64,000 nt of DNA from Pseudomonadota bacterium (GCA_018819135.1 JAHJQK010000075.1:236-64235); one strand, 5' to 3'. Shown: positions 1 through 62,120, numbered from the stretch's first letter. Translations and numbers: made by a program. Notes: generated from the sequence alone by a model not told the origin.

Positions 1-105
1 CGCGCTGCGCGCGCCCGAACGGCGAGTTGCGCGGAGCGCCTCGCCCGATTTGTCCGACCGCGCGCTGATTCGCGCGGCCGAACAAAATCGTTCGAGCCGT
101 TAGCC
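1..105 (+). other. 3' portion of a long attC-type recombination site (window begins inside it); R' core GTTAGCC at 99-105
   Basis: 1-99 is 98/99 identical to 4321-4419, and its last ~48 nt recur at 2638-2685. The three copies diverge immediately after ...GCCGTT, the G|TT crossover position of a GTTRRRY-like core. Confidence 0.7.
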
Positions 106-124
106 GTAAGGATGAGGAACTACA

Positions 125-1102
125 ATGAAGAAAGCTGTTTTTATATCATCAACCTTTGAGGATCTGAAGAATCACAGACGTAAAATATGGGACCTCCTGG
201 AAAAATTCCATGTTGACGTCCGTGGTATGGAGCGATTTGGAGCACGGAAAGAGGCTCCGCTAATAACATGCCTTAGTGAGGTCGAACAATGTGATATTTT
301 TGTTGGCATACTCGCCTTCCGTCTAGGTAGTATCGATGAAGATTCAGGCAAATCCTTTACCCAAAGAGAGTATGAAAGGGCCTATGAGCTAAATCGTGAG
401 ATTCTCATATATATGATTGATGAAAAGGATTCACTGATTTCGCCTCAGAATATTGACTTTGATGAAAAACGGGAAAGGCTCATAGCTTTTAAATCAATTC
501 TCAGGGATAGGCACACGGTTGACTTTTTCCTGTCCGAGGATGACTTAGCAGAAAAACTGAAGAGAAAGTTCGATGAGCTTCTCGCATCAAAAGAACTTAG
601 GGAGGACACCTCCACCGACGAATACGGGAATTCTAAAGAAATCATTGGAAAATTTCTGCTGCTTCCGAAAGTCTATTCAGGTCGGGTGGTCAAGCTGAAG
701 GTAGACTTCGTGGGTAATGCTTTCCCAGCTTCAAAATCCCTGTGCTCGAACTTCAATCTCGAATACGGCAAAACGATCGGGGTTAAAGTCAAAATCAAGG
801 CGCCATTGCTTGAGGATGATGCGATCGAGTATGTCTTTGTCGATCAAGGTAACTTAAATGATTTCTTTTCACTGCGACACCGAAAGGAAATAGAAGTCTA
901 TGGGAAGCTTCAGTTTTCGGAAAACAAAATCGAGGAGTTGAAAGCCAATTTTGTAAGGAAGGAATATTATGTTGGAGGAGTCGCTTCTCTATCCCTAAAT
1001 CTGATGGATGCCGAAACCAAAAGAAGCCTGTTTGGAGAGAGGAGAATTGTTGAGGCAGACGGGAGAGTCATCATAAAGCTTACCAAGATCATGGCCACAT
1101 GA
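125..1102 (+). CDS. DUF4062-domain protein (TIR-like / deoxyribosyltransferase-like N-terminal fold) with an uncharacterised C-terminal half; cassette 1
   Basis: 325-aa ORF with an AGGATGAGG SD-like run upstream. The N-terminus (KAVFISSTFEDLKNHR...CDIFVGILAFRLGS...SFTQREYERAY...ILIYMID) fits the DUF4062 pattern from memory. Residues ~165-325 match nothing I recognise. Confidence 0.75.
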   Translation: MKKAVFISSTFEDLKNHRRKIWDLLEKFHVDVRGMERFGARKEAPLITCLSEVEQCDIFVGILAFRLGSIDEDSGKSFTQREYERAYELNREILIYMIDEKDSLISPQNIDFDEKRERLIAFKSILRDRHTVDFFLSEDDLAEKLKRKFDELLASKELREDTSTDEYGNSKEIIGKFLLLPKVYSGRVVKLKVDFVGNAFPASKSLCSNFNLEYGKTIGVKVKIKAPLLEDDAIEYVFVDQGNLNDFFSLRHRKEIEVYGKLQFSENKIEELKANFVRKEYYVGGVASLSLNLMDAETKRSLFGERRIVEADGRVIIKLTKIMAT

Positions 1103-1285
1103 ATTCAAACCCACTACGCCCAACGGCACAAACGGAGGGCTCAAACCCTGACGGCTTCGTCTGTACCGCGCACGTTGCTTGTCTGTCCATTGCGGGCAAA
1201 AAGCAAAAGTAGAATGGCGCCCATTAAATTATGAAATCCTGGAAAAGACGTAAGGTTAAGGACGCAGGAAATTGAACAAAAACTC

Positions 1286-1348
1286 GCCTAACCAGGCGGT
1301 CCACCGGATCGCCGATAAATCCGGCTCCCGGTGACCTTTTTGTTCGAC
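1286..1348 (+). other. attC site (63 nt) closing cassette 1
   Basis: GCCTAAC(R'')-CAGGC-GGTCCACCGG ... CCGGTGACC-TTTTT-GTTCGAC(R'). Geometry is 7-5-L''...L'-5-7, with one unpaired C in top-strand L''. The R'' is a canonical RYYYAAC. Confidence 0.75.
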
Positions 1349-1401
1349 CGCTAACGCAAGACCGGAAAAAAACTTCCGGAATCCAATGATGTGAGGCTGC
1401 A

Positions 1402-2523
1402 ATGCATGGTCCCTACTTCGAAGGCCAACAGCCGAGTGCATGCGGGCACTACTACCCGGATGTCCAGAGATTGCGCGACGAACGCCGTAAAGACGGTTCG
1501 CTCGTTAGATTAATTCAATGTCGGTGGTGTGGCAGAAGCGAACGCGTTATCGACCCTGAACAGTTTAATCCCGATGGTGTTACAGAACTGTCAGAAAAGG
1601 GAGTAAGTCTTCGGTTGGACGAAGAGACTTGGTTAGAGTCAAGTGAAGATGTGAGCGGAATGAATGCACTTGCGGCATTCAATCTCTCGATCCTTGCGAA
1701 CTTCGCCGAGGTATTGCCATTCGTCGTACCGCCCGGTGACAAAAACCGCGACCCACAACCTGGATATGCATTGCTCATGCGTACCCTGGAACTTTTCATC
1801 ATCCAGGTCTTTGCGTCGCTCGATTTGCCCACCATTCCGAAGAGCCGAAGTGCACATGACCTGCTTCACGAAATGGCTGAGCACAAAGCTCTTCCGCCGA
1901 AGCTCCTTGAAGAAATGTCTGAATTGATGGAAAAAAGGGGACTATTCATCCACGCGCTGGAGTCAAGCGTAACACTGAGAATGCTACGTCATGATGCCAT
2001 CCGCGTCGCTCGAATCATCTCATGGTACACGTTCGAATTCGAACGTGCCCACCGAGTCATGCATTTGGACGTACCACAACGAAGTGTCCCGCAGGCGTTC
2101 GATGCACACGGATCGCGCAAACTCTTTCTATGTTACGCGCGCGAAGACGTCGAACGCGCCTTGCACCTTTACAGAATACTGAAGAAACGCGGACATAAAC
2201 CATGGATGGACAAGAAGGACCTGCTTCCCGGTCAAAATTGGGAGCACGAAATCGAAAAAGCGATTCGTGAATCCGCCTTTTTCATCGCCTGCCTTTCACC
2301 GGCCAGCGTCAGCAAAAGGGGGTTCGTCCAAAAGGAGGTCCGCTACGCTCTGCGGGTATTAGACGAGATTCCGCAGAATCAAATATTCATCATTCCAGTC
2401 ATGTTGGAACCATGCAATCCACCGGATCATCTCAGGTCGTTGCAATGGATAACAATTGAGAGTCGTGAGGGCCTTGATAAAATGTTCCGAGCAATTGAAG
2501 GTGTCGATGGGACATCGAATTAA
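1402..2523 (+). CDS. TIR-domain protein with N-terminal Cys/His cluster and a helical HEPN-like (DUF4145-like) middle region; cassette 2
   Basis: 373 aa, GTGAGG SD 5 nt upstream. The C-terminus (KLFLCYAREDVERA...WMDKKDLLPGQNW...AFFIACLSPASVSKRGFVQKEVRYAL) is TIR-like. The middle has RGLFIH (Rx4H). The N-terminus has CGH...CRWCG. Confidence 0.8.
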   Translation: MHGPYFEGQQPSACGHYYPDVQRLRDERRKDGSLVRLIQCRWCGRSERVIDPEQFNPDGVTELSEKGVSLRLDEETWLESSEDVSGMNALAAFNLSILANFAEVLPFVVPPGDKNRDPQPGYALLMRTLELFIIQVFASLDLPTIPKSRSAHDLLHEMAEHKALPPKLLEEMSELMEKRGLFIHALESSVTLRMLRHDAIRVARIISWYTFEFERAHRVMHLDVPQRSVPQAFDAHGSRKLFLCYAREDVERALHLYRILKKRGHKPWMDKKDLLPGQNWEHEIEKAIRESAFFIACLSPASVSKRGFVQKEVRYALRVLDEIPQNQIFIIPVMLEPCNPPDHLRSLQWITIESREGLDKMFRAIEGVDGTSN

Positions 2524-2553
2524 AGGCATCCGACATTAACTTTAATCAGCGCG

Positions 2554-2691
2554 GTCGAACAAAGCGTTGCACCGGAGCGGCGGGCAGCGCATCTTCTGAG
2601 AATGGAAGTCGTTCGCCGCCGCCCGGTGAAATTATTCGTTCGGCCGCGCGCTGATTCGCGCGGCCGAACAAAATCGTTCGAGCCGTTGGAC
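2554..2691 (+). other. long composite attC-type site closing cassette 2 (R'' GTCGAAC 2554-2560; R' GTTGGAC 2685-2691; inner R'-like GTTCGGC 2638-2644)
   Basis: R'' is the exact complement of cassette 2's first bases (G|TTCGAC at 1342-1348). There is a long imperfect palindrome CACCGGAGCGGCGGGC...GCCGCCGCCCGGTG. The 3' 48 nt are shared with 52-99 and 4372-4419. Confidence 0.65.
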
Positions 2692-2698
2692 ATAACAT

Positions 2699-4242
2699 AT
2701 GAAAATTAAAAAAGAGTCAATTAAATGGGCATTAAAATCTCTTGAAAATTTAGGAGATAGCGACCTGTTTGCCCGACCTTTCGAACTTTCAATCATCCAA
2801 GATTTAGGTGATATCGCCGTTTCGGAATTAGCCTCCTTGGATTTATCTTCTTTTGGCTACGGTCCTTCTCGCAGATTCATTGTTCCAAAAGATGACCTAT
2901 CATATCGCACGGCATCCCAATTAGATCCTCTAAACAGTGTGCTACTAACAACGTTAATTTATGAATATGGGCATCTAATTGAAGCCAAAAGGAGGTCAAA
3001 AGAAGAAAAAAAGTTTTTAGTTATCGTTTTGCTCCGGATACCGACGGACAACTCTATGATTCCGCTAATTCATGGAATGATTTTTGGAGGACTTGCTACG
3101 AAGTCTCCCAAAAGTATAATTACGTTGTAATTCTAGATATAGCTGATTTTTATAACCAAATTTATCATCACGCCCTTGAAAACCAACTAATAGATGCTGG
3201 GTTACCAAATCAGGCGCTGAAGTGGATTATTGGACTATGCAGCGCTCTATCAGCAAAAGTCTCCCGAGGTGTACCAGTTGGGCCTCATGCTTCTCACATT
3301 CTCGCTGAGGCAGTCTTGTCGCCTGTAGATAACGTTCTATCTCATCAGGGAATAAATTTTTGTAGGTATGTTGATGATATCGTTCTTTTCGCCGAATCAG
3401 AGATAGAAGCACGATCTCTCATTTTAACGCTCGCAAACACTCTTGACAAACAGCAAAAGTTGCTGATCCAAAGACATAAAACCCAATTAATGGATCGTGA
3501 TAAATTTCGAAAGTTTTGCCTCGAAATGATAGAAGATAGACCCATAGACGATCTTGAAAGGGATCTAGTTTTAATCATTCAAAAACACTCTCATGGTAAC
3601 CCTTATAGAATAGTCTGGATAAGCGAATTGTCTGACGACGAGCTTTCGAAATTTAGACCTGATGTAATTGAAAAGATTGTTACAGATTATTTAGAGAAGC
3701 CAGAACCAGATTATATAAGGTTGAGATGGTTTATAAGAAGGTTAGCTCAAATTGGTCACCCGGCAGGCATTAATATATTTCTTCGCGAGTTTTCAAGACT
3801 TTTGCCAGCCTTGAGTGAAATTTGCCGCTATTTTCTGGCTGTAAGTCAGGTGACTGATCTCGATTGGGAAAATATTGGTCAAGATCTGTTAACTTTCTTC
3901 GAGAATAAAATAATTAAATCAAATGAATATTACCAACTCTCTATTTTATCTCTATTTGCAAGTCAGCAAAAATTTGACAATTTACCGAGTATAATAAAAC
4001 TTTATCAAAATGCGTCGCCGTATTTGAGGAGAGAAATTATTATTTGCGCAGCAAAACATAATGCGACTGATTGGATCAGAGAGCTAAAAGAAACTTTCCC
4101 AACTATGGATCCCTGGAATCGTAGAGCCTTTATCTATGCATCATCAATTTTCCCTGCAGAAGAAAGAAAATTCTTCTTAAAAAATATTCAAGGCAATGAT
4201 TTATTGGAGGAATTAATTATCAAATGGATTAAATCGGAATAA
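2699..4242 (+). CDS. reverse transcriptase of the defence-associated UG/Abi type with a long alpha-helical C-terminal region; reading frame broken once (frame 2 to frame 1) at the A7 run 3006-3012; cassette 3
   Basis: Track ORFs 2699-3130 and 3316-4242 are joined by open frame 1 from 2983. RT motifs seen: RRFIVPKDDLSYR, ILDIADFYNQIYHH, GVPVGPHASHILAE, FCRYVDDIVLF (YVDD). One extra A would restore a ~514-aa protein. Confidence 0.8.
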
Positions 4243-4245
4243 ATT

Positions 4246-4425
4246 GTCCAACAATCGGCTGAAGATGGACTGGCAAATGAGCGCAGCGGATTTGCTAGCC
4301 ACTTAGCCGAAGCGTTCGGTCGCGCTGCGCGCGCCCGAACGGCGAGTTGCGCGGAGCGCCTCGCCCGATTTGTCCGGCCGCGCGCTGATTCGCGCGGCCG
4401 AACAAAATCGTTCGAGCCGTTGGGC
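4246..4425 (+). other. long composite attC-type site closing cassette 3 (R'' GTCCAAC 4246-4252; R' GTTGGGC 4419-4425)
   Basis: R'' is the exact complement of cassette 3's first bases (G|TTGGAC at 2685-2691). Contains the 99-nt block also present at 1-99 and the hairpin GTCCGGCCGCGCG-CTGATT-CGCGCGGCCGAAC. Confidence 0.65.
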
Positions 4426-4437
4426 AGAGGAGAAGGC

Positions 4438-4905
4438 ATGAAGACCCTGTTTGAAGTTTGTGTCAAGCAGATGAACGAAGACAACAGCCGCTTCTGGACC
4501 GTCTTTCACGTTTTTACGTTGATGAACGGGGGACTGCTCGCCTTGTCTGCCTCAAGCAGCACCAACCCGGAGGTGAAACTTGGCATAGCTATTGTCGCGG
4601 GACTCATCTGTGTGCTCTGGCGACAGATACAAGCAAGGATGGGTTTCTGGTCCCGACGGTGGGAAGAGGATGCTGAGCGCATTGAGGAACTTTATGTCGC
4701 TGACGTTAACGAGGAACGTCAGCGGAACAACCTTCCCCCTCTACCGAATACGGCGAAGGTTTTTCTTGGGCGCAAGCCGAAAACGAGAGGCAAAGGAGAG
4801 AAACGGTGGCCTGGCATGTCCACAAGGAATGCAGGGACGTATCTCCCACTTTTGTTCTTGCTTGCTTGGGTGCTGTTCTTCGGGGCAACGCTTCGGGGTC
4901 TATGA
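4438..4905 (+). CDS. small predicted membrane protein (about 3 TM segments), no recognised family; cassette 4
   Basis: ATG at 4438 preceded by GAGGAGAAGG. Hydrophobic stretches: FWTVFHVFTLMNGGLLALSA, LGIAIVAGLICVLW, YLPLLFLLAWVLFFGATL. The track start at 4420 is the TTG of the R' box and is unlikely to be the real start. Confidence 0.6.
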   Translation: MKTLFEVCVKQMNEDNSRFWTVFHVFTLMNGGLLALSASSSTNPEVKLGIAIVAGLICVLWRQIQARMGFWSRRWEEDAERIEELYVADVNEERQRNNLPPLPNTAKVFLGRKPKTRGKGEKRWPGMSTRNAGTYLPLLFLLAWVLFFGATLRGL

Positions 4906-4949
4906 ATCTCGGGGGCGCCACGCGTGGAGCCGGTCCAGCAGCAGGCTCT

Positions 4950-5008
4950 GCCCAACACGCCGCTCCAGCCGACGCGGTAGTCCGCGCGGCTGAGCGGCAA
5001 CGTTGGGC
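4950..5008 (+). other. canonical attC site (59 nt) closing cassette 4
   Basis: GCCCAAC-ACGCC-GCTCCAG-CCGACGCGGTAGTCCGCGCGG-CTGAGCG-GCAAC-GTTGGGC. R''/R' match 7/7 and fit RYYYAAC/GTTRRRY exactly. One unpaired C in top-strand L''. R'' complements cassette 4's first bases (4419-4425). Confidence 0.85.
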
Positions 5009-5463: not shown

Positions 5464-5916
5464 TCACTGCAGGAAATCATCAAGAACCAGAATGGTTATT
5501 CCTTCAGCCCGGAGAGTACGCAGACGGGCATCATTGGTTATAAAAGCATCTGCCTTTTCAATTATTGACGTAGCCATCAGGAGGGCATCCGGAGTTCGGA
5601 TTCTATATTTAGAACGAAGGCGCGCGGCTTCCCTGGCGATGAGGTAATCCGGAGATTTTAGTTCCGTATTTGGTAGGGAGAAAAGAAAGCGTTCAAAAGC
5701 CGCGATTCGGTCCTGCTGGCCAGCGGTAAACGGTTGGACCAAAAGCTCGGTCACGGAAACTGTAGATAATACTGCGATCAAAGAACCTTCGGCAACCGCT
5801 GCAAAAATATTTTCCGTCAAATTCGCATACGGCTCCAGATCTTCGAGGTGATAAATCAGAAGGGAACTATCTAATCCTACTTTCTTCAGCTTTTTTAATT
5901 CATTCTGAAATGCCAT
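5464..5916 (-). CDS. vapC: PIN-domain toxin (VapC family)
   Basis: 150 aa. Has VGLDSSLLIYHLED ... TVSVTELL ... ITNDARL acidic PIN signature positions. Sits 4 nt downstream of the AbrB-type antitoxin gene. Confidence 0.8.
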   Translation of the reverse strand: MAFQNELKKLKKVGLDSSLLIYHLEDLEPYANLTENIFAAVAEGSLIAVLSTVSVTELLVQPFTAGQQDRIAAFERFLFSLPNTELKSPDYLIAREAARLRSKYRIRTPDALLMATSIIEKADAFITNDARLRTLRAEGITILVLDDFLQ

Positions 5917-5920
5917 GATC

Positions 5921-6172
5921 CTATGCCCACGACCGGCGTTCCTTCTCGAGATACCGTTCCACTGCCTTTCGATCTTTTCCCCATGTCCCCTTCATCAGGC
6001 CCCGGGTCGTCTTGGCATATTCCCGCGGGCGTGTTAAAACAACCTTTCCAGATTCGAAAGTAACGAGGAGTTCTTCTCCTTCCTTCACCCCTAAGGCTTC
6101 CCTCATTTCCTTGGGAATCACAAATTGCCCTTTTTTGCTTATTCTTACCGCCTTTATAATATTCATACTCAA
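5921..6172 (-). CDS. vapB: AbrB/SpoVT-family antitoxin (VapB-type)
   Basis: 83 aa. AVRISKKGQFVIPKEMREALGVKEGEELLV is a typical SpoVT/AbrB swapped-hairpin motif. Forms an operon with vapC. Confidence 0.75.
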   Translation of the reverse strand: MSMNIIKAVRISKKGQFVIPKEMREALGVKEGEELLVTFESGKVVLTRPREYAKTTRGLMKGTWGKDRKAVERYLEKERRSWA

Positions 6173-6177
6173 TCCTC

Positions 6178-6426
6178 CTAAGTCATATTATAAATAAAAT
6201 GGTAAGAAAATTGCAAGAGTAAATTGGGAATGGGACTATGGAACTTTGTATTTGGTATTATGTCCCCGGAATACCCGAGAATATTGACATCGTGAACTTT
6301 GCCATGAGTTATGCGGATAAAACAGGGAATGCTTCCCCGCAAATCCATGAGGGTATGGACCTTGACAGCCCCTTTGTGTTTGCGAAAATGGGCCCAGGGA
6401 AACAGGGTGAGGTATCTTTCCGTCAT
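6178..6426 (-). pseudogene. fragment of an IS4/IS5-type DDE transposase
   Basis: FPWAHFRKHKGAVKVHTLMDLRGSIPCFIRITHGKVHDVNIL is the start of a DDE_Tnp_4-like catalytic domain. Only ~60 informative residues remain; no N-terminus or rest of the DDE triad. Confidence 0.6.
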
Positions 6427-9569: not shown

Positions 9570-10797
9570 TGAGTTTTCCCCCCTCGGAAAGATTCTGCTG
9601 GCCGGCGACCACAACTTTTTCGCCTCCCTGTAAACCCTCCACAATTTCCATAAACTCGCCGTATTTACTGCCCACTTTCACAGCCTTTTCCTTGGCGTGG
9701 CCTTTTTCCTCCACGAACACCTTAACTTTGGTTTCCTCGTATAAAAGAGCCGTTACCGGGATCACCACCGTTTCCTTGGCCTGCCCGGTATACAGGATAA
9801 CCTTGGCAAAAAGGCCTGGCTTTAAAATTCCTTCAGGATTCGGAACCAAGGCCTCCACCAAAAGGGTCCTGGTTTTTTCCTCCAGGCTCGGATAAATGGT
9901 GGTGACTTCCCCTTTGAATTCTCTTTCGGGAAAAGCATCCACCCGCAGGGAAACACCCTGGCCGTTCTTTACTTTTCCCACGTCTCTTTCCCTCATAGTA
10001 AAACGAAGCTTGATGGGGTTTGATTGAATGATCACAAAAAGAGGGGTACCATTTTTCACCAACTCCCCTTTGGAAACCTTCCGGACCCGGACGATTCCAG
10101 CCAGGGGAGAAAAGATCTTGGTCTTGCTGAGTTTTTGGCGGGCCAGAGAGAGGGCGGCCTGGGATTGGTCTAATTGGGCGCGAGCGGCGGCGATTTCTTC
10201 CTGGCGGGGTCCCTCGACCACCAAAGCATAATTTTCTTTGGCCTTTTTATGGTAGGCAACAGCTACCTCGTATGCGGTTCGGGCAGAATCCCATTCCTGG
10301 GCGGAGATGTATTTATCCTGATAAAGCTTTTTGGCCCGATCCATATCCGCTTTCCGTTTCTCCATATCGGCCAGGGTCTGATTCACCTCCGCCTTCGCCA
10401 GTTGAATTTCTTGAGGACGGGCACCGGTTAAGAGTTGTTGTAGCCGGGAATCGGCACCCTCCAAGACGGCCTCGGCTCTTTTCGTTTCCAGACGATAATC
10501 CGTGTCATCGATCACGGCCAGTAGCATATCCCTGGAAACCTTGGTTCCTTCGTCCACTTTGAGATCCTTTAAAATCCCATCGACCTCGGTGCTTACCGTT
10601 ACCTCGTCATAGGGGTTTAAATTGCCAATGGCTTCTACGAAGGGCCGGAGAGGTCTTTTTTCCGCTGCCCGGACCTGTACGTTATAAACCTTCTCCTCGG
10701 CAACAGGTATTGAACTCACTTTTTCGCAGGCATTCAAAAGCAGAAGAACGGGAAGGGTCGATAAAAAAATAGAAGCCACGCGTAATTTTATCTTCAT
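9556..10797 (-). CDS. RND efflux periplasmic adaptor (HlyD/MFP family) lipoprotein
   Basis: Start chosen at MKIKLRVASIFLSTLPVLLLLNAC (lipobox). Has a coiled-coil hairpin and beta-barrel regions typical of AcrA-like adaptors. Confidence 0.85.
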   Translation of the reverse strand: MKIKLRVASIFLSTLPVLLLLNACEKVSSIPVAEEKVYNVQVRAAEKRPLRPFVEAIGNLNPYDEVTVSTEVDGILKDLKVDEGTKVSRDMLLAVIDDTDYRLETKRAEAVLEGADSRLQQLLTGARPQEIQLAKAEVNQTLADMEKRKADMDRAKKLYQDKYISAQEWDSARTAYEVAVAYHKKAKENYALVVEGPRQEEIAAARAQLDQSQAALSLARQKLSKTKIFSPLAGIVRVRKVSKGELVKNGTPLFVIIQSNPIKLRFTMRERDVGKVKNGQGVSLRVDAFPEREFKGEVTTIYPSLEEKTRTLLVEALVPNPEGILKPGLFAKVILYTGQAKETVVIPVTALLYEETKVKVFVEEKGHAKEKAVKVGSKYGEFMEIVEGLQGGEKVVVAGQQNLSEGGKLNVAR

Positions 10798-20863: not shown

Positions 20864-20961
20864 GGAAGTGGATAGGGCACTGGTGGCTCTCCCGGACTTC
20901 AAATCCGGTGTGCCGTCTGAGCAAGGCGGCAGGTGGGTTCGATTCCCATGCACTTCCGCCA
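20864..20961 (+). tRNA. selC: tRNA-Sec (anticodon TCA), CCA encoded
   Basis: GGAAGTGG...GGACTTCAAATCC...long variable arm GTGCCGTCTGAGCAAGGCGGCAG...GGTTCGATTCC...CACTTCCGCCA. 98 nt. Anticodon and T arms are nearly identical to E. coli selC as I recall it. Confidence 0.85.
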
Positions 20962-60656: not shown

Positions 60657-62120
60657 ATGGCAAATGAATCCGCTGGTATAGTCCAAAGACTCTGGAATTA
60701 TTGCAACGTCCTCCGGGATGACGGCGTGAGCTATGGGGACTACGTGGAGCAGTTGACGTTCCTATTGTTTCTTAAAATGGCGGATGAGCAGACTAAGCCT
60801 CCTTTCAATAAGCGTTCCGCTATACCCCAGGAGCTTGATTGGCAGAGCCTTTTGAAGAAAGACGGCGATGCCCTGGAAGTTCATTATCGCCATATTCTCG
60901 ATAGCCTTGGAAAAGCCGGAGGGATGCTCGGAATCATTTTCCGAAAAGCCCAAAATAAAATCCAAGACCCAGCCAAATTGAAGCGCCTCATCGAACTTAT
61001 AAATGAAGAAACATGGGTCGGGCTGGATATTGATGTGAAAGGGGAGATTTACGAGGGTCTCCTGCAAAAGAACGCCGAGGACGTAAAGGGCGGCGCAGGG
61101 CAATATTTTACTCCCCGGCCTTTGATCAAGGCGATGGTGGAAGTAACCAGGCCGGAACCAGGGCAAACCATCTGCGATCCTGCCTGTGGAACGGGCGGCT
61201 TCCTCCTGGCATCTCATGATTACCTCTCCAACCCTAAGAACTATTCCCTCGATAAAGATCAAAAAACATTCCTCAAATTCAAAACCTTTAAAGGCAAGGA
61301 TATAGTCGATGGGGTAGCCAGGCTCTGCGTAATGAACCTATTCCTTCACGGCATCGGAGGGGAGGAAAGCCCGATTGAAGTGGGAGATTCACTCATTTCC
61401 GATCCGGGCCATCGATTTGATATTGTTCTTACCAATCCGCCATTCGGGAAAAAGAGCAGTATCACCATCGTAAACGGCGAGGGAAAAGCCGATAGGGAAA
61501 CCCTGGTTTATGAGAGGCAGGATTTTTGGGCCACAACCTCGAACAAGCAACTGAATTTCCTCCAGCACGTCAAAACCATCCTTAAAATCAACGGCAAATG
61601 CGCAATCGTGGTTCCGGACAACGTCCTGTTTGAGGGTGGAGCGGGAGAAACAGTCAGGAAGAAGCTCTTGGCTGAATGCGACGTTCACACCCTCTTGAGG
61701 CTTCCTACGGGTGTTTTTTATGCCCAGGGCGTAAAGGCCAACGTCCTTTTTTTTGCCCGAAAAGAAGCCAGGGAAAAACCTTGGACAGAAAGACTGTGGA
61801 TATATGATCTAAGAACCAATAAGCACTTCACCCTCAAAACAAACCCGCTCCGATACGATGACCTACAGGATTTCATCAAATGCTACAACCCCAAGAACCG
61901 TTTCGATCGAAAGGAAAACGACCGCTTTAAGTCATTTTCGTATGACGAACTGATGCAGAGGGACAAGGTGAGCCTGGATATATTCTGGCTTAAAGACGAA
62001 AGCCTCGAAGACTCCGAAAACCTCCCAGCCCCAGACCTGATCGCCGCCGACATCGTTGAAAACTTAGAATCCGCCCTGGAACAATTCAGCGGTATTTATG
62101 AGAATTTGACAAATAAATGA
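60657..62120 (+). CDS. hsdM: type I restriction-modification N6-adenine DNA methyltransferase subunit
   Basis: 487 aa. HsdM N-terminal domain (LWNYCNVLRDDGVSYGDYVEQLTFLLFLKM), DPACGTGGFL and NPPFG. Confidence 0.9.
   Translation: MANESAGIVQRLWNYCNVLRDDGVSYGDYVEQLTFLLFLKMADEQTKPPFNKRSAIPQELDWQSLLKKDGDALEVHYRHILDSLGKAGGMLGIIFRKAQNKIQDPAKLKRLIELINEETWVGLDIDVKGEIYEGLLQKNAEDVKGGAGQYFTPRPLIKAMVEVTRPEPGQTICDPACGTGGFLLASHDYLSNPKNYSLDKDQKTFLKFKTFKGKDIVDGVARLCVMNLFLHGIGGEESPIEVGDSLISDPGHRFDIVLTNPPFGKKSSITIVNGEGKADRETLVYERQDFWATTSNKQLNFLQHVKTILKINGKCAIVVPDNVLFEGGAGETVRKKLLAECDVHTLLRLPTGVFYAQGVKANVLFFARKEAREKPWTERLWIYDLRTNKHFTLKTNPLRYDDLQDFIKCYNPKNRFDRKENDRFKSFSYDELMQRDKVSLDIFWLKDESLEDSENLPAPDLIAADIVENLESALEQFSGIYENLTNK

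Follow-up and report, generated by a model that had tools for sequence, protein, structure and literature searches.

A probable attI-proximal integron cassette array with gene-less micro-cassettes on a chromosome assigned to an uncultured member of the Thermodesulfobacteriota

The first 5008 nucleotides of a 64,000-nt stretch of DNA from a Pseudomonadota bacterium (GCA_018819135.1 JAHJQK010000075.1:236-64235; referred to below as the window) very probably represent the attI-proximal end of an integron cassette array on the chromosome of an uncultured member of the Thermodesulfobacteriota. Besides four cassettes that contain an open reading frame (ORF) and end in an attC site, the array contains very short gene-less units, two copies of a module called D2 and a shorter form called unit b. 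All coordinates are those of the window, in which the array occupies positions 1-5008, unless a contig label precedes them. The window is a part of ENA contig ERZ27247117 k141_341856, which is 77.9 kb long and of which only 272 nt exist to the left of the window. The label L001 denotes the contig carrying the window and the labels L004-L057 denote related contigs.

The attC sites were located with two covariance models. Model R1 was constructed from nine hand-picked attC sites, two of them from the window, and was used to gather 58 sites on contigs other than the window's own. Model R2 was constructed from these 58 sites alone, with none from the window, and was run on all 64 kb with the filters off. 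The relatives of D2 were fetched with an exact 29/30-mer inside the repeat, resulting in five contigs from metagenome-assembled genomes (MAGs) and 44 metagenome contigs. The earlier note on this DNA, made by a model from the sequence alone, had proposed an integron array. The independent model R2 finds exactly four attC sites, all of them on the plus strand and all of them within 1-5008:

1286-1348, plus strand: attC of cassette 1, 63 nt, GCCTAAC ... GTTCGAC; R2 65.8 bits, E = 1e-15
2554-2644, plus strand: attC of cassette 2, 91 nt with a long central loop, GTCGAAC ... GTTCGGC; R2 34.5 bits, E = 4e-7
4246-4320, plus strand: attC of cassette 3, 74-75 nt, GTCCAAC ... GTTCGGT; R2 35.2 bits, E = 3e-7
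4950-5008, plus strand: attC of cassette 4 and the final site of the array, 59 nt, GCCCAAC/GTTGGGC; R2 52.1 bits, E = 6e-12

The sites are spaced by about 1.2, 1.6 and 0.6 kb. No more attC sites were found by R2 in 5009-64000, and the best remaining match outside the array has an E value of about 0.08, if two palindromic sites that were scored on the opposite strand are set aside. On L001, the attC of cassette 2 is given 29.2 bits by R1. The R'' box RYYYAAC and the R' box GTTRRRY are present at the ends of all four sites, with the small departure that position 4 of R' is a C in three of the four. The R' boxes of the second and the third site are GTTCGGC (2638-2644) and GTTCGGT (4313-4319), respectively. 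The 5' half of the attC of cassette 2 (2558-2578) is a 76% direct repeat of that of cassette 1 (1290-1310), and the 3' ends of these two sites are parallel.

When the bottom strands are folded as DNA, three of the four sites give an R stem, an internal loop and an L stem with bulged bases. The site at 4950-5008, which had been described as a textbook attC, deserves this description, because its bottom strand folds with -30.2 kcal/mol (z = -7.3) into precisely this arrangement with a single bulged base. The site at 1286-1348, to which the same geometry had been ascribed, is also an attC. Its lowest-energy fold (z = -3.4) contains the L stem and the bulged base, with R' unpaired and R'' folded onto itself. 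An unpaired R' is expected here, as it is what the hybrid R' present in an array predicts. The fold of the attC of cassette 3 has three bulged bases on the R''/L'' arm.

The structure is also apparent from the comparison of the 58 related sites. In the stems, 84% of the cells are paired, as opposed to 71% when the sites are shuffled, and covariation reaches a score of 0.355 compared to 0.14 for shuffled sites and to at most 0.09 for controls with slid partners, in an alignment that was fitted to the model and hence leans toward structure. The strand bias of the attC sites in the related arrays is 69 to 2. Judged from their sequences, the four sites can be classified as attC sites, having the R boxes, an imperfect palindrome with extrahelical bases and a structure that is kept while the sequence varies. 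A separate case is the perfectly palindromic attC at L007 550-613 (GCCTAACGCTGCGCTTCACCTG...CAGGTGAAGCGCAGCGTTAGGC), which scores on both strands and has no bulged bases. Given the lack of bulged bases, the strand choice of the integrase would be ambiguous at this site.

The second line of evidence is the relationship between the two ends of each cassette. Cassette 2 starts with GTTCGACCGC and carries GCGGTCGAAC on its own R'' side, the two being complementary in 10 of 10 positions. The corresponding sequences are GTTGGACA and TGTCCAAC in cassette 3 (8/8), and GTTGGGCAGAG and CTCTGCCCAAC in cassette 4 (11/11). The complementarity had previously been noticed over 7 nt and is longer than claimed in all three cassettes. 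Its significance was estimated by dinucleotide-preserving shuffling of each 3' untranslated region, with an exact 7-mer match as the criterion. The resulting P values for cassettes 2, 3 and 4 are 0.020, 0.0026 and 0.013, and the joint value is about 7e-7, far from what equality with shuffled sequences would give. Of 45 cassettes in the related contigs, 34 have an R'' that is exactly complementary to the 7-mer of the nearest upstream junction, and the mean over all 45 is 6.44 matches out of 7. The R' box of the same attC, which was used as a control, is exact in 5/45 (mean 4.78), and the second junction upstream is exact in 2/28. The integron model predicts exactly this offset between a cassette's own R'' and the nearest upstream junction and ordinary palindromes do not, so that the observation supports the cassette interpretation. 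The complementary start and R'' would be the trace of a formerly circular unit with a single attC, which an integron integrase inserted.

The cassettes are seen in different surroundings in the related arrays. One and the same attC has differing downstream neighbors in L012 and L031, and a cassette starting with GTTGGAATTTAA... sits behind different upstream junctions in L025, L030, L036, L046 and L051. The ORF of cassette 1 is present on two short Logan contigs, which are broken inside the flanking repeats and are too short to reveal its neighbors. A cassette boundary at GTTCGAG (2676) or within the hairpins described below was considered and ruled out, because the R'' of each cassette matches the 7-mer that follows ...GAGCC.

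A conserved repeat is found at three junctions of the array, namely at 1-101, at 4321-4421, where it is 99% identical, and, in a shorter form, at 2634-2695. From 64 aligned copies of the repeat, the D2 module can be delimited; it is about 107 nt long. It always begins with GTTCGGT. In some copies this is the R' box of a complete canonical attC, and in the others it comes immediately behind a conserved AT-rich sequence. Its end is always ...AAAATCGTTCGAGCC G|TT, and is followed either by a variable cassette start or by a further 60-nt module, c. Both ends of D2 coincide with G|TT crossovers in every context, and its orientation is always that of the array. There are 33 unique full-length D2 contexts in sediment metagenomes, of which 7 are after attI and 26 are after different attC sites. 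D2 is near-identical across these contexts and its variation is almost limited to the first 13 nt, whereas attI, in the same loci, has an average identity of only 83%; in this comparison the last 29 nt of D2 were predetermined by the pattern used for the search. Behind D2, at least 17 different cassette starts were found, and such a start nearly always matches the R'' of its own cassette where the attC of the cassette lies in the same locus. Deletion and mosaic variants of D2 are present in L015, L021, L024, L025 and L036.

Several observations demonstrate that D2 is not a part of the attC that precedes it. In the 7 contexts after attI, D2 is positioned directly behind the AT-rich sequence with no R''/L'' half before it. 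The attC shared by L012 and L031 is followed by D2 in the former but not in the latter. Finally, the attC sites in front of D2 are complete and end at GTTCGGY. The three junctions therefore hold an extra gene-less unit. In the earlier note, two of the junctions had been drawn as long attC sites (2554-2691 and 4246-4425), but the true R' boxes end at 2644 and 4319, respectively, and the rest is a separate gene-less module. The array thus has seven units between G|TT crossovers, and not four or five:

1-99, plus strand: gene-less module D2, copy 1; begins 6 nt to the left of the window, immediately behind the attI crossover G (L001 266); its last base, at 99, is the G of G|TT
100-1342, plus strand: cassette 1; ORF 125-1102, 325 aa, N-terminal DUF4062 domain (Pfam E = 4.7e-24), and attC
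1343-2638, plus strand: cassette 2; ORF 1402-2523, 373 aa, C-terminal TIR domain (Pfam TIR_2 E = 1.7e-29; PADLOC TIR-type models), and attC
2639-2685, plus strand: gene-less unit b, 47 nt, the 3' part of D2 alone; G|TT at 2638 and 2685
2686-4313, plus strand: cassette 3; Drt8-type defence reverse transcriptase (RT) 2699-4242 with one frameshift, and attC
4314-4419, plus strand: gene-less module D2, copy 2; 106 nt between crossovers, GC-rich hairpins A, B and C
4420-5002, plus strand: cassette 4; ORF 4438-4905, 155 aa, 8xMP membrane protein family (Pfam E = 1.2e-14), and attC

The statement that each unit holds one co-directional ORF is correct for the four ORF cassettes, in which the ORF starts 25, 59, 13 and 18 nt past the crossover (cassettes 1-4), but not for D2 and unit b.

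D2 consists of three GC-rich hairpins, and the top strand of copy 2 folds with -44.7 kcal/mol (z = -4.2). In hairpins A and C, an R'-type box at the unit start pairs with an R''-type box and a CGCGCG clamp (GTTCGGT...CCCGAAC and GTCCGAC...GCCGAAC). Hairpin A is perfect in L009, which has ACCGAAC, and the diverged version found in L033 covaries (GTTGCCG...CGGCAAC). Hairpin B is similar to a short spacer-less type of attC from L004 and L036, as is the inner part of unit a, in which R' reads GTC. Unit b is a perfect 13-bp hairpin, GTTCGGCCGCGCG/CGCGCGGCCGAAC, with a folding energy of -20 kcal/mol, followed by AAAATCGTTCGAGCC G. A classical attC was not found at the 3' end of D2 and unit b, which reads GCCGAAC, 15 nt, GTTnnnn, and has R boxes and no L boxes. 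The sequence of D2 has no plausible ORF upon reading, no match to a sigma-70-like promoter, no terminal inverted repeats and no target duplication, and its hairpin motif has no copy outside the array within the 64 kb. Rfam gave no D2 match, either with the gathering threshold on the whole window or with E values up to 1 on the array; relevant matches in the array are absent, the only others being a tRNA-Sec elsewhere and a spurious microRNA match on the attC of cassette 4. Terminator-like matches in the region are not enriched (5 versus 6.4 expected). A role of D2 as a promoter cassette is unsupported, other sigma factors apart. D2 and unit b are gene-less micro-cassettes, built from attC-derived hairpins and separable from both neighbors at G|TT.

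How such a unit originated and moves can be outlined as follows. D2 might be composed of ghost cassettes that lost their interiors and then fused. The internal junction, being GTC instead of GTT, would lock the two halves together. The 3' end would most likely serve as a double-stranded secondary insertion point similar to attG or attI, or else D2 would ride as the 5' part of composite cassettes. It is possible, but on balance rather doubtful, that D2 is a non-autonomous gene-less micro-cassette that has multiplied in the arrays of this lineage as the counterpart of a miniature inverted-repeat transposable element (MITE), and that its conserved 3' end is a portable double-stranded landing site of the attI/attG kind, which would provide additional points of entry for new cassettes far inside the arrays.

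Module c, 60 nt in length (GTTCGCCCTCGG...CAACTCGCC G|TT), is a second conserved gene-less module, often located behind D2. It is present in L007 (75-139), L008, L036 (D2-oriented 10571-10634) and about 10 other loci. In this module, an R''-like box is joined straight to an L'/R' half, as though a deletion had removed the L'' half together with the loop. The short contigs L004, L005 and L006, which carry D2 cassettes, are binned in MAGs labelled Hydrogenedentota, Planctomycetota and Proteobacteria. These labels most likely reflect mis-binning of repeat-bounded contigs rather than cross-phylum spread.

The attI site is situated outside the window and comprises about 130 nt of AT-rich sequence to the left of the first G|TT (L001 ~140-265). 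In L001, the attI-like end is ...CCGTATAATAATC G|TTCGGT with D2 directly after it, and the crossover is ...TATAATAATC G|TT. The region is homologous (mean 83%) to its counterpart in at least 10 other loci. An intI-like gene starts about 175 nt to the left of the crossover, on the other strand, in L010, L016, L036, L053, L054 and L055, and an ORF cassette begins directly at ...TATAATNATY G|TT in L054, L055 and L057. The first cassette of L054 starts with GTTATCC and matches its own R'', GGATAAC, which identifies the AT-rich end as the attI crossover. L054 (55.6 kb, with LepA and HemN adjoining) contains an intI fragment, the same attI and 12 attC sites, the eleven beyond the first being spread over 8 kb. 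D2 was also considered as a part of the attI platform, since it occupies the first position in every platform fetched via D2 itself. However, it is first in only one of the four platforms that were found via the N-terminus of intI (in L053, but not in L054, L055 and L057), so that D2 is a mobile unit and not a part of attI. Matches to a Pc-type promoter consensus are located at L001 62-91 and 184-213 on the plus strand, and promoter-like matches are not enriched in the region.

Related arrays with D2-type modules adjoin intI. L033 encodes a full integron integrase (TIGR02249, 425 bits with a cutoff of 265), divergent from an array that comprises a HicBA-like cassette, a hairpin-A-like unit, unit b and module c. 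In L053, attI and D2 are accompanied by an intI that contains the IntI-specific patch FPSSKLSVDPRSGIVRRHH (DPRSGIVRRHH) and is distributed over three frames in an error-prone contig. In the contig of the window, the homology to the relatives ends about 130 nt to the left of the crossover, and unrelated sequence is present where intI would start. Searches by tblastn and a motif scan found no intI in the 64 kb, as had been stated for the window, and none in the 272 nt to its left. RAYT/IS200-like ORFs (RAYT, repetitive extragenic palindrome-associated tyrosine transposase) sit at the break of intI in L010 (reverse strand; D2-oriented 337-735) and in L016.

With no intI in its place, the locus is a cluster of attC sites lacking an integrase (CALIN) by the IntegronFinder definition (PMC4889954). 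The earlier note had left the choice between an integron array and a CALIN open. The array stands, all three refuting conditions named in the note having come out in its favor, and CALIN is the better description of this contig, where attI is present and unrelated sequence is found in the place of intI. As far as the sequence can tell, the locus is a CALIN that still possesses attI and, biologically, a decayed integron. Any further shuffling of its cassettes would need an integrase acting in trans.

A number of points weigh against the reading of the locus as an integron array with mobile micro-cassettes. The contig has no integrase, and activity cannot be claimed here; it also stops 272 nt to the left of the window, and an intI displaced further left is possible. 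All 82 database homologs of the N-terminus (125 aa) of the intI of this lineage are at most 219 aa long. Such fragments are also present on contigs as long as 55-164 kb, but the figure is partly due to short contigs. In a search for a full-length integrase of this attI lineage, the best case was the split gene of L053. The integrase of the lineage may be largely inactive, and its decay seems to be common there. The start of cassette 1, GTTAGCC, matches its R'', GCCTAAC, in only 6 of 7 positions (P = 0.41), a match that by itself is not significant. The terminal site of D2 receives only 10-15 bits from R2 (E = 0.08-2) and has no L boxes. The training sites of R1 and R2 were picked by the author or by R1 and differ from the curated attC model of IntegronFinder. 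Finally, fetching the relatives via an exact 29-mer inflates the conservation at that position and favors arrays that carry D2.

The two longer junctions can be interpreted differently if 2554-2691 and 4246-4425 are each taken as a single, branched attC of 138 and 180 nt, respectively, with D2 or unit b as the conserved 3' half, as in the Vibrio sites of the VCR (Vibrio cholerae repeat) type. The bottom strand of 2554-2691 can be folded as a three-way structure in which R'' (2554-2560) pairs with GTTCGAG (2676-2682), and the ORF cassettes do begin after D2. The closing pair of the three-way structure differs from the real crossover (2685), however, and the attC sites of cassettes 1 and 4 function without any D2. 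The complete canonical attC sites that the model finds just before D2, the pair L012 and L031, and the 7 unique contexts in which D2 directly follows attI all contradict this interpretation, which we regard as very unlikely. Another possibility is that D2, b and c are palindromes of the repetitive extragenic palindrome (REP), bacterial interspersed mosaic element (BIME) or MITE kind, spread by a different enzyme that targets attC, such as a transposase of the RAYT/IS200 type. This would be an unlikely explanation, because both ends of D2 are located exactly at G|TT in every context, always in the orientation of the array, and because covariation is seen between the R'/R''-type boxes that form the arms (GTTGCCG/CGGCAAC in L033, ACCGAAC in L009). 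The absence of the hairpin motif from the rest of the 64 kb and the lack of terminal inverted repeats and target duplications also disagree with it, even though the D2-type modules, like REP elements, are GC-rich tandem hairpins between co-directional genes, are near-identical across samples in the case of D2, and have RAYT/IS200-like ORFs as neighbors where intI is broken in L010 and L016.

The genes of the array are co-directional and defence-like, which would also fit a defence-gene operon in which the palindromes are terminators or attenuators and the 7-mers match by chance. Such an operon is hardly conceivable in view of the joint shuffle value, the rule that holds in 34 of 45 cassettes elsewhere, attC model E values of 1e-15 to 4e-7, relatives that carry intI, the different GC content of the units and a number of terminator-like matches that is below the expectation. 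The preferred interpretation thus remains that of an integron array, with D2 and unit b as separate units of it.

The cargo of the array appears to be mostly of the phage-defence type, as predicted from the domains in its single-gene cassettes (DUF4062, TIR, Drt8 and 8xMP). The GC content is about 0.32-0.43 in the RT cassette and about 0.54-0.57 in cassette 4, in agreement with the difference in base composition between the units that had been pointed out before. The Drt8 model of PADLOC matches two ORF pieces, with E = 3e-25 for profile positions 1-101 and E = 2e-76 for 202-491. The frameshift is located in an A7 run at ~3006-3012, and a one-base shift brings back the RT motifs, including YVDD. 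The frameshift could be an assembly error, the sign of a pseudogene or a slippery tract.

The parent contig encodes MnmG, ATP synthase subunits, an RND pump, a type I methylase and tRNA-Sec. The host taxonomy was derived from MnmG of this contig, and the labels of the MAGs containing short D2 contigs were not used. MnmG is 98% identical to a protein from a Deltaproteobacteria MAG, 82% to proteins from Thermodesulfobacteriota MAGs and 74% to a protein from a Syntrophaceae MAG. On this protein evidence, the DNA is assigned to the chromosome of an uncultured sediment bacterium of the Thermodesulfobacteriota (the former Deltaproteobacteria). To the right of 5008, a pair of genes for a PIN (VapC-like) protein and a MazE/AbrB-type antitoxin, at 5464-6172 on the minus strand, is followed by a remnant of a DDE transposase at 6178-6426, also on the minus strand. 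Neither an attC nor a GCCCAAC partner was found for this vapBC pair up to 12 kb. The pair may be a former toxin-antitoxin cassette that was cut off by an insertion sequence (IS). Farther to the right, the following features were noted:

20864-20957, plus strand: tRNA-Sec gene, Rfam 73.7 bits
22039-23790, plus strand: full-length IS-type DDE transposase with DDE_Tnp_1_6 and DUF772 domains
60657-62120, plus strand: HsdM, type I restriction-modification methylase, a defence gene outside the array

A CALIN has been defined as two or more attC sites that share a strand, are separated by less than 4 kb and have no intI nearby (Cury et al. 2016, PMC4889954). The typical size is about 5 attC sites, and loss of the integrase from a complete integron has been proposed as the origin (PMC4889954). 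The present locus differs in that attI has been kept and could be recognized via relatives with intI remnants. It is a decayed platform and not an orphan cluster, with the left side visible for 272 nt only. Sedentary chromosomal integrons with a decayed intI are known, for example, from Xanthomonas (10.1101/2025.06.18.660453). Similar to the integrons of Xanthomonas and the superintegron of Vibrio, the arrays described here are chromosomal, with co-directional cassettes and an integrase that is often inactivated, and the relatives contain toxin-antitoxin cassettes (BrnT- and VapBC-like in L036, HicBA-like in L033 according to sequence reading, and ParE/Phd in L055). Unlike in those integrons, the attC sites here are heterogeneous (57-98 nt) instead of forming one species-specific repeat, the homogeneous repeat being the gene-less D2 and not attC, and the array in the window is short, with 4 attC sites.

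Promoters or small RNAs are known from gene-less cassettes of Vibrio, Treponema and Xanthomonas (Blanco et al. 2024, PMC11014356; review PMC8876359). Those that have been studied are 491-666 bp long and have a classical attC of 101-127 bp (PMC11014356), and a promoter is often present (PMC11014356; PMC8876359). D2 and unit b resemble them in being ORF-less units between crossover points inside arrays. However, with about 107 and 47 nt, respectively, they consist of attC-derived hairpins only, without a canonical attC. They are also present in several copies per array, near-identical over many metagenomes, and have no sigma-70-like promoter. The secondary sites called attG are double-stranded, require little more than G|WT and take up cassettes (10.1101/2022.09.11.507474). 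By analogy, an attG-like reaction would offer a route for cassettes into the 3' GTT of D2, which lacks L boxes, but the repeated and precise use of the end of D2 is more typical of a dedicated site than of a random GWT. Phage-defence genes have been reported from integron cassettes (10.1101/2024.07.02.601719; PMC12614218). The single-gene Drt8 reverse transcriptase and TIR protein cargo is similar to these, whereas the frameshift in Drt8, the predicted nature of the function and the host, an uncultured anaerobe and not a Vibrio or an enterobacterial plasmid, are different. In the open full-text literature, we found no description of a 47-107-nt multi-copy unit consisting of attC-derived hairpins alone. 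Arrays, CALINs, decayed integrases, and toxin-antitoxin and defence cassettes have all been described before, and the micro-cassette is the sole unusual part of the locus.

The array, one further remnant of a chromosomal integron, extends the record of integrons in uncultured anaerobic Thermodesulfobacteriota and contributes to the recent view that phage-defence genes are stored in cassettes. It also illustrates a pitfall of annotation, in that D2-type modules located beside an attC can make the site look too long, and the gene-less units can be overlooked. If it is true that the integrase uses the 3' end of D2, the arrays of this lineage would have internal insertion sites, and the picture of cassettes entering at attI only would change.

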